Positions 12,001 through 21,000 of a stretch of 64,000 nucleotides of DNA are shown piece after piece (the first letter of the stretch is position 1; each line of letters opens with the position of its first letter). Origin of the DNA: Escherichia coli (lineage in GTDB: Bacteria; Pseudomonadota; Gammaproteobacteria; Enterobacterales; Enterobacteriaceae); assembly GCF_045037415.1 (NCBI RefSeq), contig NZ_CP173440.1; one strand, 5' to 3'. Made by a program: the position numbers.

Positions 12001-15000
12001 TGTTATCCCCTTCAGTCAGACGCGTTTCAATCGGTGGTTGCTCCGGAACATGTAATGTCACCACGCCATCGGTTTTGTCCCAGCTGGGCACGCCCTGATA
12101 GATAAAGGCATAAATCAGTACCTGGCGAATTTCTTTCCATTCGCGGCCATTGATGTGTAGCCATTCCCCATCCAGAGCCTCGCCGGTACGATCATCACCC
12201 TGCAGTTGAACATATGGCTCAGAGTGATAGTTACCAAAAGCATTACCGAGTGCCTGAACAACTGACTTATAGCCATCTGCGAGTTCAACGAATGCGCCAA
12301 GATCCAGGTCTATCGCTTTGTTCGAACCAAACATACCGCCCAGTAACCCGCCTGAACCCGAGCCACGATGCCAGTTCAGATTGATGCGGATTTCACCAAA
12401 ATTGTCTTTTTTGGCAAGGCTGATGGCAGGCTTCTCTTTGGTCAGAGAAACTTTACTCAGGCTAACTTTAGGCGGAGCCGGAGGCGCTGGTGGCGGAGTG
12501 ACTGGAGCTGGATCATCCGCGACGTTGACGCCATAGTACTCAGCGAGAGGTTTCAGGCCACCATTGAAGCCCTGGGCGATAAAACGAAATTTCCAGTCAC
12601 CATTCCTGCGATAGATTTCACCGAGGATCAGAGCAGCTTCCTGACGGCCGTTCAGTTCTACCTGACCACTGATCAGCGAGGTATTGCCACTTTCAATTTG
12701 TATGGACAGATGATTCAGGGAGGAAACGGTATGACTGCCGTCACAGGTAACGGTGAAGGCGACTTTCTGCACGTCGGGCTTGAGGCGGGACAGATCAACG
12801 GTGAAAACGCTATTGGTCCCTTCAGTACTGAAGCTAATGGAACCATCTTCATTACGGGGTTGCCCGTAAAAGACCATATCGCTGTCACCCCGAACTTTCC
12901 CGTCAGCGAATAATCTAAACGCCGAGGCATCAACAGGACCACCAGCAATGACTCTAACGCGGAGTTCCTGAGCAGGTACGGGGGCATTGCCCCCCGGTGT
13001 CAGATTCATGCTTTTACCACCGTACTGACGATATCGAATTGCATATCGTCGATTGTGCGGCCACCGCTTGCTTTACCGTGGGCGGTAAAGTCCCAGTGGC
13101 CGTTGTTGCGCCTCAGTGAAGCGATAATGATGCCGGTATGTGGGCCTTGTTCTGTCAGCTGATAGCGGGCAAGTTCCTTATTGGTCTGATCCACGACGCG
13201 GCAGAAGGCGTTATCCACGTCGTTGAAGGACTGTCCACGGAAGCTGTTCACAGTAAAAGCGAGGTATTCGACATTTGCCGGCAATTTTAAGAGGTTGACG
13301 TGAATGATTTCATCATCGCCATCCCCCTCACCCGTCAGGTTATCGCCGGAGTGGACGACAGAACCACAGCTGGATTTCAGTTTACGAAACCAGATGGTGT
13401 CAATTTTATTACCTGCGGCATCCAGAAGAACGCAACCTGCATCCAGGTCTATGGAATCATTGCCACCAAAAATGCTGCCAAATAATCCCTTTTTCTTAAC
13501 AGGATCCCAACCCAGTCCGAACTGAAGCTGGCTGAGAGCAGTGGATTGTTTGCTGAGTGATACTGTCTGGTTTTTACTTAAAGAAACCATATTCATTCCT
13601 TAAAAGGTATTGACCGGGTTTTTATAAAATTCATTTTCAAACAGAGTGCATCTAAATCATATCATGACAAAGTTCACCCGCAAGGTAAAAACTGGTGGGT
13701 TTCTGGAATTTACGTTTAATTACATTGGGTGGGTAGGTGATGGTTTGATATATGTTATTGTTATTAAGTGGTTTTGTGGTCTAACCGGAAAATCAAAAAC
13801 AGCGAGTGATTATCATATTATGATTGACATGGCGCAGGTCGGTTCTTAGACTCATGTATTACAAAAATCTCATCCCCTTTTCAGGCGACAATTATAAAAA
13901 ATGAAAAAGAAAATTTGGTTTATGGAAGGGCTATCTTCCCAGCGAGACATTGTCCTTGGAGTGAAATCATTTGCGGAAAAGGAAAATCAGGATATTGAAA
14001 TCTTTTCTTCTCATCGCAACGAGAGGAAAGAGATCTTGTCTGTTTCCGATTTTTCAATGATCGAACCTAACAACGAAGAAGAACGTCTTTCTTTTATTCA
14101 TTCCATTACTGACGCTCATGGTATTAATGCGATACATACTGGTCGCAACTGTAAATGGTTTGAAAGCCACCGGGAAAACATTCAACGTTCTGGTGTACAC
14201 CTGACTACCGGGTCAACGGGTACTCACTGGTTTGAATTAGCCGATGAAAAAGTTACTTTTTCCGAGTTTATGGAAAAAAATGGACTTCCGGTTGTCCCGT
14301 CGGTTCGGGTAAAAAATGTAGACGAGCTTCGTACTCTGCTGAATCATCCCCCTTTCCCTTCTGATTGCCTCTGCATTAAACCTGTTACAGGCATTTATGG
14401 CATGGGATTCTGGCGTTTTGATGACAATGTTTCCCCGGTAGCTTTTCTCAACAATCCTGATAGCCGTGTTATCCACCCATCACAATACCTGGCTGCTCAT
14501 GCCCGTATGGACTGCTTTACTCCACAAGTACTGATGCCCTATTTACCCGGACCAGAATACTCTGTGGATATGGTGGTAAGTCAAGGCACGGTCCTGGCCG
14601 CTATCGGGCGGCGTAAAGAAGGTGTGCTTCAGTATCTGGAAAATGAAGGGGAAGCGATTGAACTTGCCATCAACTGCGCCCGCCTAATGAACGCAGACGG
14701 CATGGTCAATGTACAGACTCGCCATAATGCCGAAGGCAAACCACTATTGCTGGAAATTAACATGCGGCCATCAGGTGGTATCGGTTATACGCAGCACAGT
14801 GGCGTGAATCTTCCGGGTCTGTATGCCTTCCATACACTTGGGCTGATGGATGATGATCAGGTCAGGCAGTCAGCGAAAACTGATTTTTCACCTGCAGTCG
14901 TCCGCTCTGTCACTGATGTCATACTCTATCCGGCATCATTGACCAACAGAATTTATTAATGGAGACAGATATGTCAGCAATTGATGGTAATTTCGGTTAT

Positions 15001-18000: not shown

Positions 18001-21000
18001 GTATATGCCTGCCACACGCAAGGATATCGCTGAGGTCGTTCTGGAAGGGAAAATACCGGGGCTACGCTCTCTGGTTGTCTGCCTGGAAGATGCGGTCAGC
18101 GAGCATGACATCCCTCTTGCGATTCAGAATCTTTCACTGTTTTTGAAGCAATTGAGACACGCAAGAGCCGTCAACGATGATGAGAAGTACCCACTGGTAT
18201 TTATCCGCCCACGTCACACTGATATGGGGGGATGGTTAACGACTAATTTGGACCTGAGTGCAGTTGATGGTTTTGTACTGCCCAAATTCACCCTTTCCAC
18301 GCTCCCGGTTTGGTGGGACATCATGGCAGGAACATCATTGATGATGATGCCAACGCTTGAAACCGAAGAAGTCTATGATGTTATTAAAATGCAGGCGCTG
18401 GCAAATGAACTTTCGAGTCATGACTGCCGTGACCGCATAATCGCTTTGCGGATCGGCGGAAACGATCTCATGAACGTCGTGTCTCTGCGACGGCCACGGG
18501 ATCTGACCCTTTATGACACTCCTATGGGTTATGTCATAAAAATGCTTGTGTCAGTATTCGCTCCTCGTGATTTTGCGCTTACCGCACCAGTATGCGAACA
18601 CATCGACGATCACGGCGTTCTGGGACGAGAACTCTCGATGGATATCGCCCATGGGCTGGTGGGTAAAACGGCCATTCATCCTGATCAGATTAGTGTCATA
18701 GAGGAGGCGCTTAAAGTGTCTCCTGGTGAGCATTCAGATGCGTTACGAATTCTGAATTCCACCCAGGCAGTCTTCAAATCTCAGGGAGCGATGTGTGAAC
18801 CGGCCACCCATCGCCGGTGGGCTCAGGGGATCCTGGGACGGGGACAGGTATACGGTCTGACTACGGGGCAAAATCCGGAAGGAATCAGGCTTATTCCAGT
18901 TTCTAAGCAGCACTGAGGAAGCATATATGGGATTCAGATTTCGTAAATCGATCAGCATTATCCCGGGGGTCAGGGTTAACCTGAGTAACGGGGCCCCCAG
19001 TCTGAGTATTGGCCCCCGTGGAGCTTCGCTGTCAGTGGGAAAGAATGGAACGTTTGCCAACCTGGGCCTTCCCGGAACGGGACTGAGTTACCGCACCCGG
19101 ATTGACAGAACAGCACGGGAAAGAGTGAATACCAGGCATCAGGCAGATCCCGGTCTGAGGTCTGAACTGGAGCTGGTGGTGGAAAAACTGATGTCCACCG
19201 TAACAGCGATAACCAATATCCATGAACTCTCCCCTTCCCCAAAGGGAGGGAATACCTGGGCCACGCTCGAGACACAGTACCTGGCGCTCCGTCAGGGCAG
19301 TTTCACTCTTCCTGCGCCGGTACGACCAAACAAACCTGAATATATACCTCTTCCACCAGAACCTGATGAGCATGCCGGTCGCGGTTTCCTTGGGGGATGG
19401 CTTGAATCTGATGCAGCCCGACAGGAGCGACAGAACGAAAATCTTCGGCGGTGGCAGACGTCCGTCGCTGATATTGAACGTGAAAATGCGTTGCTGAAAC
19501 AGCGTTATGAGAAACAGCGTATAGCGTGGGCTGAGCAGTACGCAGAATGGCAGCATCAGTACCAGGAGCATGAAAAAAATCGCACGGAGTCTGTAGCTTT
19601 AGCGAAAGAGCAATTCCGATCTGACGCCCGCTTCTTTGAACATTGTCTTGAGGAAGTTTTCTCGCAAACAGAATGGCCGCGAGAAACACTGGTGTCGTTT
19701 GAGGTACGGCCTGAAGAATCAACAGTCTGGCTTGATGTTGATTTACCTGAGATTGAGGATATGCCTGATAAAGTGTATAGCGTGAATGCCCGGGGAACTG
19801 ATATCAATGAAAAAGCCATGACACAGAAAGCGGTCCGGGAAAGTTACGCTAAACACGTTCACGGATGCCTGCTGAGATTAGCAGCAATCGTTTTTCAGAC
19901 GCTTCCGTTTGAACAGGCCGTCATTTCAGGCTTCACTCAGCGGGTGAGTAAACGCACTGGATATCTTGAAGATGAGTACATTATCTCCTGGCGGGTACGC
20001 CGCTCTGAAATCGAGCTAATCAACTTCGGGAATCTGCGAGGCGTTGACCCTATTGAAGCATTGGGTGATCGAGGTCTGATCAGGAAAATGAGTTCAACTT
20101 ACATTTTTCAGCCTATAGAACCACTGACCCAGATGGCAGGTACCGACTGAATATGCAATTAAACACCAGACAGGAAAGAGTTTACACCCTGGCTAACATA
20201 CTTGGCTCAGGGAAGCCTGTATCGGCGCAATCCATCACCGCGACGCTGGCCTGTTCTGAGCCGACACTAAGCCGGGCGCTTAAAGAGCTGAGGGAAACTT
20301 ACGCTGCTGAAATTAAATACAGTAAGGCTGGCCACTCCTATCAGATGGTACACTCCGGGTTACTGGATAAGAAAACACTAAAGAGAATGAGTGAGGCACT
20401 GGACCTTAATTCTGATTTAAAAACACATGACCAGGGGGCACGGGTGGTACTGGATAAGGATATAAAAACTTCCGTTTCCCTGTCGATAAGACGCCGTGTT
20501 CTTCGCAAAATTGACAAACTGGCTGCGCTAAGCGGTACATCAAGAAGCGAGGCAGTAGAAAAATTAGTAGAGTTAAAAATTGATGAAATTATCAATGAAA
20601 TGAAGAAATAGCAGAATATTAGTGGGGTGGTTGTTCTCACTCCACTAATCGGCAATCTTTACCATTTTCCCAACAGGTGTTTATTGTATAACTACAGATA
20701 AAAAGCAAATTAATAAAATAAAGATTCTTAATTCATAAATAATCCCTGTGTTTTATTTTATTAGTTTTCTTTTAACTGACCATCGTCGCCGTATTATTAA
20801 ATGCAAAAACGTTAAACCATATTTTATATAGATTATGACCTGTCCAGTTTCCCGGCGACGGGTTATCAATATGGCGAATGCCTACTAATAATGGCGGGGA
20901 TCGTATTGTTGAAATATTGAAAATTTGTAATGTTGCTCAACCAACTCGCGCGTTTGAAACAACGTGAAAATCTCACTTTGTGATTGCTGAACTAACTATA

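Follow-up and report, generated by a model that had tools for sequence, protein, structure and literature searches.

A compact ter-associated enzyme operon of Escherichia coli with a predicted phosphoribosyl-transfer core and candidate TerW operators

Introduction

What does the enzyme half of the ter locus make? In Enterobacterales of clinical importance few accessory loci are as widespread as this one, and half of it is an operon of enzymes whose product is unreported. A molecule made by the operon, together with its receptor (presumably TerD/TerB/TerC), would explain resistance to tellurite, phages and colicins from one locus. We followed this question in a stretch of 64,000 nucleotides from Escherichia coli (contig NZ_CP173440.1; the whole stretch is named the window) in which seven co-directional open reading frames (ORFs), g1 to g7, occupy positions 13901-20611 of the + strand (Table 1), divergent from terZ (13006-13596, - strand). 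An earlier note, made from the sequence alone, had placed here an operon coding for an ATP-grasp ligase, a phosphoribosyltransferase (PRTase), a HAD phosphatase, a second PRTase-like protein, an HpcH/CitE-like TIM-barrel enzyme, a DUF4236 protein and a TerW-like regulator, and had suggested that it synthesizes a phosphoribosylated, nucleoside-like small molecule. The ORFs were found where they had been placed and profile searches bear out the seven domain assignments. The reading of a compact ter-associated biosynthetic operon, probably with such a product, is supported and agrees with every test run.

The module is already known: it was predicted in 2012, has its own Pfam families and is carried by more than 1000 deposited plasmids, its product being still unreported. 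Anantharaman, Iyer and Aravind (2012; Mol Biosyst 8:3142) are said to have predicted the Ter-associated biosynthetic module, in a five-enzyme version, in work that we take to be the source of the Pfam families PRTase_2, TRSP, PRTase_1/StiP, PELOTA_1 and C-C_Bond_Lyase. The literature search, which covered 8 million full texts, found no report of the module's product, in line with the earlier note, which knew of a computational prediction only. Its view of the operon as an uncharacterized system holds for the product and has to be qualified for two components that were studied out of context, the HAD enzyme as a trehalose-6-phosphate phosphatase (TPP) and StiP as a 'protease'.

New here are the identity of a g3 orthologue with the 'trehalose phosphatase' of PDB 6CJ0/6D3V, whose gene lies inside the same module; the PRTase fold of the 'cysteine protease StiP', which has no conserved Cys; fusion proteins of the types HAD-StiP, PRTase_2-StiP and ATP-grasp-PRTase_2-StiP; the near-universal gene order and Ter linkage, with DUF4236 and TerW as lineage-specific add-ons; and a conserved 13-bp palindrome at both divergent promoters that tracks TerW.

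Conservation of the enzyme core and its linkage to Ter genes

Eighty loci anchored on StiP, the family of g4, were drawn from contigs of one genome per species and annotated by iterated hidden Markov model searches with the window proteins; we call complete the 54 loci that are flanked by 8 kb or more on either side. PRTase_2, the family of g2, is encoded in 78 of the 80 loci (53 of the 54 complete ones), HAD in 77, the lyase in 73 (50 complete) and the ATP-grasp protein in 52 (40 complete). The order PRTase_2>HAD>StiP>lyase is kept in nearly all 80 loci and spans Gamma-, Alpha- and Betaproteobacteria, Cyanobacteria, Kuenenia and a metagenome-assembled genome (MAG) of Bacteroidota. In 77 loci the HAD gene lies between the two PRTase genes with an overlapping junction. 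A Ter gene (TerD, TerB or TerC) is present within 10 kb in 53 of the complete loci, which confirms the co-occurrence with terD-family genes that the earlier note had proposed to examine; TerD-family genes are found in 71 of the 80 loci, and TerB and TerC genes in 44 each. TerW (12/80) and DUF4236 (5/80) are much rarer. The products of g1-g5 are the conserved enzyme core of the operon, and g6 and g7 are lineage-specific additions.

The smallest version of the module is found in the Acinetobacter jumbo phage vB_AbaM_ME3 (locus L087, 2013-8059), with consecutive genes for vWA, a TerC-like membrane protein, TerD, PRTase_2, HAD and StiP and neither lyase nor ATP-grasp. Because this phage carries the trio PRTase_2-HAD-StiP alone, we consider the trio to be the catalytic core, usually accompanied by the lyase and often also by the ATP-grasp protein. 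When 1.8 billion cluster representatives were searched with g4, 903 clusters were retrieved at E ≤ 0.001; among the best 150 representatives, seven are HAD-StiP fusions, about 20 are PRTase_2/TRSP-StiP fusions and one is an ATP-grasp-PRTase_2-StiP fusion. PADLOC 2.0 gave no match for g1-g6 and a weak WYL-type helix-turn-helix (HTH) match for g7, and none of its defence-system models covers the module. PHROGs matched only the DUF4236 N-terminus of g6 and, weakly, the HTH of g7. No riboswitch, leader RNA or other Rfam element was detected at E ≤ 0.1 across positions 8500-27500.

The segment 13597-20700 is 100% identical to many IncFIB/IncHI1B hybrid virulence/resistance plasmids of Klebsiella pneumoniae; in PLSDB it is carried by 1077 plasmids, 638 of them at least 99% identical. 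Plasmid NZ_CP072809.1 is base-for-base identical to the window from position 20 to 26810. The enzyme block (queried with g1-g4) is present in about 1015 of 5426 complete E. coli genomes, and tblastn with the HAD protein of the module matched 2559 of 72,556 PLSDB plasmids. The window copy, which is of the K. pneumoniae-plasmid type, was compared below with the E. coli O157:H7 copy.

Predicted functions of the enzymes

The PRTase assignment of g2 is supported by Pfam matches to PRTase_2 (PF15609, 7e-62) and TRSP (PF12500, 6e-24). Its loop for phosphoribosyl pyrophosphate (PRPP), VLVDDEATTGKT, is that of a type I PRTase, composed of a hydrophobic strand, two acidic residues and xxTGxT, and residues D162, D163, E164, T167, G168 and T170 are invariant in 28 orthologues. 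Against PDB the PRTase_2 profile matched only the PRPP loop of ordinary PRTases, at E ≥ 0.0016.

The second PRTase-like protein, g4, matches Pfam PF11202 'StiP' (formerly PRTase_1; 2.5e-89) and PELOTA_1 (5e-27). It has the PRTase alpha/beta fold. Its closest structures are PRPP-dependent ribofuranosyltransferases that pair with a HAD phosphatase, a likeness that is structural only, the g4 profile giving no PRTase-domain match among PDB sequences at E ≤ 0.1. Nineteen positions are invariant in 67 representatives of 33-55% identity (Y44, E51, S97, R100, G102, P104, H122, S126, D154, G155, W156, L166, D200, G214, S217, K297, E302, R305 and R310). Among them, D154-G155-W156 belong to the PRPP loop, FVDGWTGKG, which has one acidic residue in place of the canonical two; catalysis with such a variant loop is plausible. 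The C-terminal PELOTA domain resembles L7Ae by sequence profile (5e-05) and at the level of the fold, and contains the invariant K297, E302, R305 and R310 as well as R309, which is nearly so. PMC11994780 cites Reichert 2013 for the Acinetobacter baylyi orthologue from which the name 'StiP' derives; its gene sits in the same type of module (L049). No known protease fold was recognized in g4 and no Cys is invariant in the 67 representatives; Cys is most frequent at C229, where 44 of them have it and the others have A, T, V or Y. The RefSeq/Pfam name 'cysteine protease' is misleading for g4, and 'second PRTase-like protein' is right.

Between these two PRTase-fold proteins is encoded g3, which gave weak HAD-IIB matches only in NCBIfam (TIGR01486/TIGR01484) and none in Pfam. 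Its HAD motifs I-IV (D9, D11, T66, K154/K198, D223, D227) are invariant in 31 orthologues. The g3 sequence itself matches PDB 6CJ0/6D3V over its full length (E 3e-48), and the g3 profile matches 6CJ0 and 6D3V/6D3W, Pseudomonas aeruginosa proteins deposited as 'trehalose phosphatase', at 6e-101. This 'trehalose phosphatase' (99.6% identical by tblastn) is encoded on the P. aeruginosa plasmid CP109686.1 inside a Ter module (L086, 7875-11784) with the gene order ATP-grasp … PRTase - 'trehalose phosphatase' - StiP - HpcH lyase - HAD-IB - TerD … TerB - TerC - TerD - TerD. The only structurally solved enzyme of the module has been studied as a trehalose enzyme. The P. aeruginosa enzymes are reportedly treated as trehalose-6-phosphate phosphatases by Cross et al. 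(2018, FASEB J). In the inhibitor studies of PMC6838324, which cites that work, an orthologue of g3 from P. aeruginosa serves as an active 'extra-chromosomal TPP' and acts on a glycoside phosphate. No trehalose-6-phosphate synthase gene is annotated in the K. pneumoniae, E. coli O157 or P. aeruginosa loci. This and the Ter-module context indicate that the deposited name probably does not describe the physiological substrate.

The lyase g5 matches PF15617 C-C_Bond_Lyase (9e-109), and its profile retrieves CitE (3qll, 2e-16), malyl-CoA lyase and the beta chains of acyl-CoA lyases. Residues E43, D44, R83, R85, E134 and D169 are invariant across orthologues; these acidic and Arg residues would form the metal/carboxylate site of CitE/HpcH-HpaI lyases. 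PDB 3QLL (Yersinia pestis 'citrate lyase') was considered as the lyase of the module itself and rejected, its score against g5 being only 17 bits. For g1, NCBIfam PRK12767 was matched at 6e-16, and its profile retrieved from PDB 2pn1, a carbamoyl-phosphate synthetase (CPS)-like protein (7e-19), as well as CPS and L-amino-acid ligase. Its residues K117, K160, E219, D223, E285, N287 and R289 are invariant in 20 orthologues and comprise the ATP-binding lysines (K117, K160) and the E-x-N Mg site (E285, N287) of ATP-grasp enzymes. Single-sequence searches of PDB gave nothing for g1, g2 and g4 and weak CitE matches for g5; by this search none of the four has a close homologue of solved structure.

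Variations on the enzyme set were seen in individual loci. A second HAD gene follows the lyase gene directly in L086 (HAD-IB, 11784-12512) and in an Obscuribacterales MAG (g3-like HAD; L082, 4441-5199). In L082, moreover, the ATP-grasp gene occurs twice in tandem.

Accessory genes and candidate TerW operators

The DUF4236 match of g6 is limited to 55 residues at the N-terminus (2e-19), and no enzyme fold is recognizable in the protein. A comparison with AFDB50 returned uncharacterised DUF4236 proteins and two E. coli fragments labelled 'restriction endonuclease' and nothing else, for which reason g6 is given no enzymatic role. In six inspected enterobacterial TerW loci the lyase gene is followed directly by terW, without a DUF4236 gene. 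DUF4236 is a sporadic accessory gene of the module and belongs to a widespread, uncharacterised family. Full-length homologues were also observed among TerD genes without the biosynthetic enzymes (Psychromonas ingrahamii; L005, 9052-12977) and, without Ter genes, beside a catalase-peroxidase gene (Truepera MAG; L003, 10001-11362).

The last protein of the operon, g7, has RHH_1 (ribbon-helix-helix, RHH) and HTH matches and is 67% identical, and syntenic, to the product of the E. coli O157:H7 gene named terW by the Prokaryotic Genome Annotation Pipeline (PGAP). Among the loci analysed, TerW is confined to enterobacterial ones. The 304-nt intergenic region between terZ and g1 contains twice the 13-bp palindrome ATCATATYATGAT; 0.16 occurrences would be expected by chance in the whole window. 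Both palindromes are kept, at the same positions, in E. coli O157, although the rest of the spacer has diverged. With at most one mismatch, the palindrome is found in all 12 TerW loci, eight of which have two copies, as compared to six of the 68 loci without TerW, none of which has two; each of the 12 has a site no more than about 320 nt ahead of its first biosynthetic gene. TerW is reported to regulate the ter operon (PMC12054061, citing Valkovicova 2011). Co-occurrence suggests that the palindromes are the TerW operators of both divergent operons, including the one that carries terW. RefSeq annotates in the same intergenic region, between the operator-like sites, a hypothetical protein of 61 amino acids (13664-13849, + strand); it may be spurious, since the E. 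coli O157 annotation has no gene there.

Organization of the transcription unit

All junctions of the seven-gene operon fall within -8 to +11 nt. The intergenic gaps are 11, -8, 1, -1, 10 and 2 nt in the window and 9, -8, 1, -1, 10 and 17 nt in E. coli O157, four of the six being identical despite about 69% nucleotide identity. Three of the four tight junctions listed in the earlier note are as described there, namely the 8-nt overlap at 16106-16113, TGATG at 17960 and the 2-nt gap at 20150/20153. The fourth, TAATG at 14959, is not retained: its ATG was rejected as the start of g2, having no Shine-Dalgarno (SD) sequence and no equivalent ATG in E. coli O157, and is probably not a real start. 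The conserved start of g2 is ATG 14971, preceded at 7 nt by GGAG, so that 11 nt separate it from g1. Genes g3 and g4 also abut (stop at 16879, ATG at 16881), a junction absent from the earlier list. TTG 16815 was discarded as the start of g4 in favor of ATG 16881, which has an SD sequence, is the PGAP start and agrees with E. coli. For most starts of the operon the SD sequence lies inside the preceding gene. Between the window and E. coli O157, the differences per site in all seven genes are about 0.1-0.3 at codon position 1, 0.09-0.20 at position 2 and about 0.6 at position 3, a pattern that shows that all seven are under purifying selection.

The TTGACA hexamer adjoining palindrome 2 is kept in E. 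coli O157. From 13400 to 21300 the numbers of promoter-like sites (12 against 9.7 expected) and terminator-like sites (6 against 7.1 expected) are at chance level, and there is therefore no reason to split the operon. The hairpin that follows terW lacks a clean U-tract and hence is not a canonical terminator; about 440 nt of AT-rich spacer separate it from terY1, and transcription of the operon possibly ends at it. The geometry would most simply be read as that of a single, tightly coupled transcription unit.

Table 1. Genes and candidate regulatory sites of the operon (window positions).
Feature	Position	Strand	Description	RefSeq name
operator-like palindrome 1	13656..13668		ATCATATCATGAC; terZ-promoter side of the divergent intergenic region	
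operator-like palindrome 2	13812..13824		ATCATATTATGAT; abuts the -35 hexamer TTGACA of the operon promoter	
sigma-70-like promoter candidate	13824..13852	+	TTGACA-17-TAGACT, 10/12, consensus match only; 49 nt upstream of the g1 ATG	
g1	13901..14959	+	ATP-grasp ligase, 352 aa	ATP-grasp
g2	14971..16113	+	type I PRTase (PRTase_2) + TRSP domain, 380 aa from the conserved ATG; ORF also opens at 14959	phosphoribosyltransferase-domain
g3	16106..16879	+	HAD-IIB phosphatase, 257 aa	hypothetical
g4	16881..17960	+	'StiP', PRTase_1-fold domain + PELOTA/L7Ae-like domain, 359 aa	'cysteine protease StiP family'
g5	17960..18916	+	CitE/HpcH-like TIM-barrel C-C lyase, 318 aa	
g6	18927..20150	+	DUF4236 protein, 407 aa; N-terminal beta-hairpin, long helix, C-terminal alpha/beta domain	DUF4236
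g7	20153..20611	+	TerW, predicted DNA-binding regulator (winged HTH + RHH), 152 aa	CopG-family RHH
hairpin	20619..20648	+	12-bp stem right after the terW stop; free energy (dG) -18.8 kcal/mol, z -3.4	

A proposed pathway and its alternatives

A single explanation can be offered for the enterobacterial Ter-associated module, in which phosphoribosyl transfer from PRPP is followed by 5-dephosphorylation, under the control of TerW; we consider it probable, with moderate confidence. One or both PRTase-fold proteins (g2, g4) would move 5-phosphoribose from PRPP to an acceptor, and the HAD-IIB enzyme g3 would then strip the 5-phosphate of the ribose to give a ribosylated, nucleoside-like small molecule. 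The acceptor would be made or decorated by the lyase g5, acting on a carboxylate or acyl-CoA in a C-C bond step that depends on Mg, and by the ATP-grasp enzyme g1, in an ATP-dependent amide or ester ligation. Both are seen as optional extensions, as the trio g2-g3-g4 occurs without them. We presume that the TerD/TerB/TerC proteins inherited with the module are either targets of the product or mediate its action. TerW would bind the 13-bp palindrome at both divergent promoters and control terZABCDE(F) together with its own operon, the latter being presumably transcribed as one unit from the promoter just upstream of g1, and the DUF4236 protein g6 would be a non-enzymatic accessory associated with Ter loci rather than with the enzymes.

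Transfer from PRPP and 5-dephosphorylation are proposed because of the chemistry of analogous systems (see Comparison with known systems), the pairing of PRTase and HAD by gene order and fusion, and the activity of the HAD family on a glycoside phosphate. The mechanism agrees with what PMC8115787, PMC11994780 and PMC7824862 relay of the published in silico prediction, a nucleoside-like product, and adds to it, by analogy, that the acceptor need not be a nucleobase. The product might be a new signalling nucleoside or a new ribosyl modification.

Several points weigh against this proposal. The PRPP loop of g4 is atypical, with its single acidic residue, and the RNA-binding-type domain of the protein could mean that it is a sensor or acts on RNA. 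Its similarity to ribofuranosyltransferases is seen in structure only, as stated above for the PDB profile search at E ≤ 0.1. The assayed activity of the HAD family is confined to trehalose-6-phosphate (PMC6838324) and includes no derivative of ribose-5-phosphate. Tellurite resistance is conferred by terZ-F alone (PMC8115787), which leaves any contribution of the module to a phenotype conjectural. The roles of g1, g2, g4 and g5 are predictions from sequence, and co-occurrence is what points to binding of TerW to the palindrome.

Two of these points, the variant loop with one acidic residue and the L7Ae likeness of the C-terminal domain with its conserved basic and acidic residues (K297, E302, R305, R310 and, nearly, R309), would fit a g4 that is a PyrR-like sensor. 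Its PRTase fold would bind PRPP or the nucleotide-like product and its PELOTA/L7Ae-like domain would bind RNA, coupling the level of the metabolite to translation or RNA stability, while g2 alone would transfer phosphoribose. We regard this as unlikely: about 19 invariant residues of the 67 representatives cluster at pyrophosphate- and PRPP-loop positions, as is typical of an active site, the repeated fusion to HAD and PRTase_2 is that expected of consecutive catalysts, and the top structural matches are true transferases.

It is also conceivable, at a similarly low probability, that phosphoribose is transferred as proposed and that the acceptor is a macromolecule or a non-nucleobase nucleophile. 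Examples would be the ribose hydroxyl of an RNA recruited by PELOTA, and the hydroxyl of a sugar or alcohol, as when glycans are ribofuranosylated. In that case the target would be ribosylated and no free nucleoside-like signal would be released. The nearest folds to g4 are indeed O-ribofuranosyltransferases that work with a HAD phosphatase, an L7Ae/PELOTA domain is fused to the transferase fold, and the HAD family hydrolyses a glycoside phosphate in vitro (PMC6838324). On the other side, the loci examined have no polysaccharide-synthesis or export genes, the region 8500-27500 has no RNA gene or Rfam element, and the lyase and ATP-grasp enzymes better fit small-molecule chemistry. In its furthest form, to which we assign equally little weight, the trio PRTase_2-HAD-StiP would by analogy be a PRPP-dependent ribosylation machine in which StiP acts on an RNA ribose hydroxyl or another hydroxyl and HAD trims the 5-phosphate. 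If true, Ter would work via a new ribosyl modification or an O-ribosylated signal and not via a conventional nucleoside, and the PDB 'trehalose phosphatase' structures would be the first solved enzyme of a ribosylation pathway.

It is very improbable that the true role of g3 is to dephosphorylate trehalose-6-phosphate and so provide trehalose for protection against stress. HAD phosphatases are commonly promiscuous in vitro, which counts against taking trehalose-6-phosphate as the natural substrate. The reading draws on the deposition of the P. aeruginosa orthologues (6CJ0, 6D3V, 6D3W) as 'trehalose phosphatase' and on their use as active TPPs (PMC6838324), and is countered by the lack of an annotated synthase gene in the three loci inspected for one, by the position of the HAD gene, locked between two PRTase genes in 77 of the 80 loci, and by its fusion to StiP in seven representative clusters. 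Least credible of all is a cysteine protease g4, by which the operon would mix proteolysis with unrelated enzymes: the name from the A. baylyi report (Reichert 2013, as cited in PMC11994780), on a gene of the same module, is set against the lack of an invariant Cys, C229 being Cys in only 44 of 67 representatives.

The proposal of PRPP transfer and dephosphorylation comes with handles for its study: a minimal set of three genes, catalytic residues, a solved phosphatase structure, a precedent for PRPP transfer paired with a HAD enzyme, and candidate TerW operators. It also corrects the labels 'cysteine protease' and 'trehalose phosphatase' that currently obscure the pathway.

Neighboring sequences of the window

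Downstream of g7 the RefSeq annotation lists vWA, TerD, vWA, TerY-C, PP2C and kinase genes. The InaA-like kinase gene of the TerY/PP2C/kinase triad (25927-27427) reads GGTTCTC at 26805-26815, one T more than the GGTCTC of NZ_CP072809.1 and other plasmids that are otherwise identical. The frameshift splits it into the ORFs 25927-26907 and 26639-27427, and may be either genuine, making a pseudogene, or due to a sequencing error. Beyond terE, at 6739-8952, RefSeq annotates in an identical plasmid a vWA-domain gene (7711-8952, - strand) and a separate HAD-family hydrolase (6739-7374, + strand). The latter appears to be the 'conserved HAD' of PMC8115787 and, by its position, is no counterpart of g3. 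Transposase genes of TnAs1 and IS26 come immediately after the ter locus, in a stretch that runs from 27834 past about 31600. Past about 31.6 kb the window diverges from NZ_CP072809.1, in which mph(A), blaNDM-1 and a class 1 integron are found at this point. As is typical of a resistance island, GC content goes up to 0.58-0.66 in several blocks of the 28-48 kb region.

Comparison with known systems

PyrR, a pyrimidine attenuator protein, uses its PRTase domain to bind RNA; in g4 a distinct domain of L7Ae/PELOTA type is present, and the Rfam search revealed no attenuator RNA in the window locus. The P. aeruginosa TPPs (6CJ0, 6D3V, 6D3W) are like g3, to which they are orthologous, and are encoded between PRTase_2 and StiP; they have been interpreted as trehalose-pathway enzymes, while their genomic context argues for another physiological substrate.

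The closest precedent for the chemistry is given by the ribofuranosyltransferase systems, in which a PRTase-like enzyme moves Ribf-5-P from PRPP and a HAD-family phosphatase strips the 5-phosphate (PMC10299916; PMC11127046). The gPRT/PRP pair of Thermobacillus composti (PDB 7SHG) and CriT/CrpP of Haemophilus influenzae Bcs3 (PDB 8A0C) combine a PRTase-like fold with a HAD phosphatase, as found here. In contrast, gPRT and CriT have no detectable sequence homology to g4 and carry helical bundles where g4 has a PELOTA domain; the window operon adds a second PRTase, a lyase and an ATP-grasp enzyme, and has no capsule or O-antigen genes nearby.

The tellurite-resistance island of E. coli O157:H7 and IncHI2-type ter loci have the same seven-gene order and almost the same gene lengths, five of the seven being equal. 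Compared with the window, the O157:H7 proteins are 63-83% identical at about 69% nucleotide identity, with four identical junctions and the same two palindromes. An IS66-family element follows terW in E. coli O157, where the window has terY-terX-terY-TerY-C-PP2C-kinase. The same locus was named a 'putative biosynthetic cluster' in K. pneumoniae NTUH-K2044 (PMC8115787). Finally, the Ter-associated biosynthetic module of 2012, compared here through the summaries of later papers, is defined by five enzymes encoded together and by Ter linkage. The window operon encodes the same five enzyme families, has terZABCDE divergently adjacent and shares the linkage to TerD/TerB/TerC; it adds a DUF4236 gene and terW inside the transcription unit, and otherwise differs in nothing essential.

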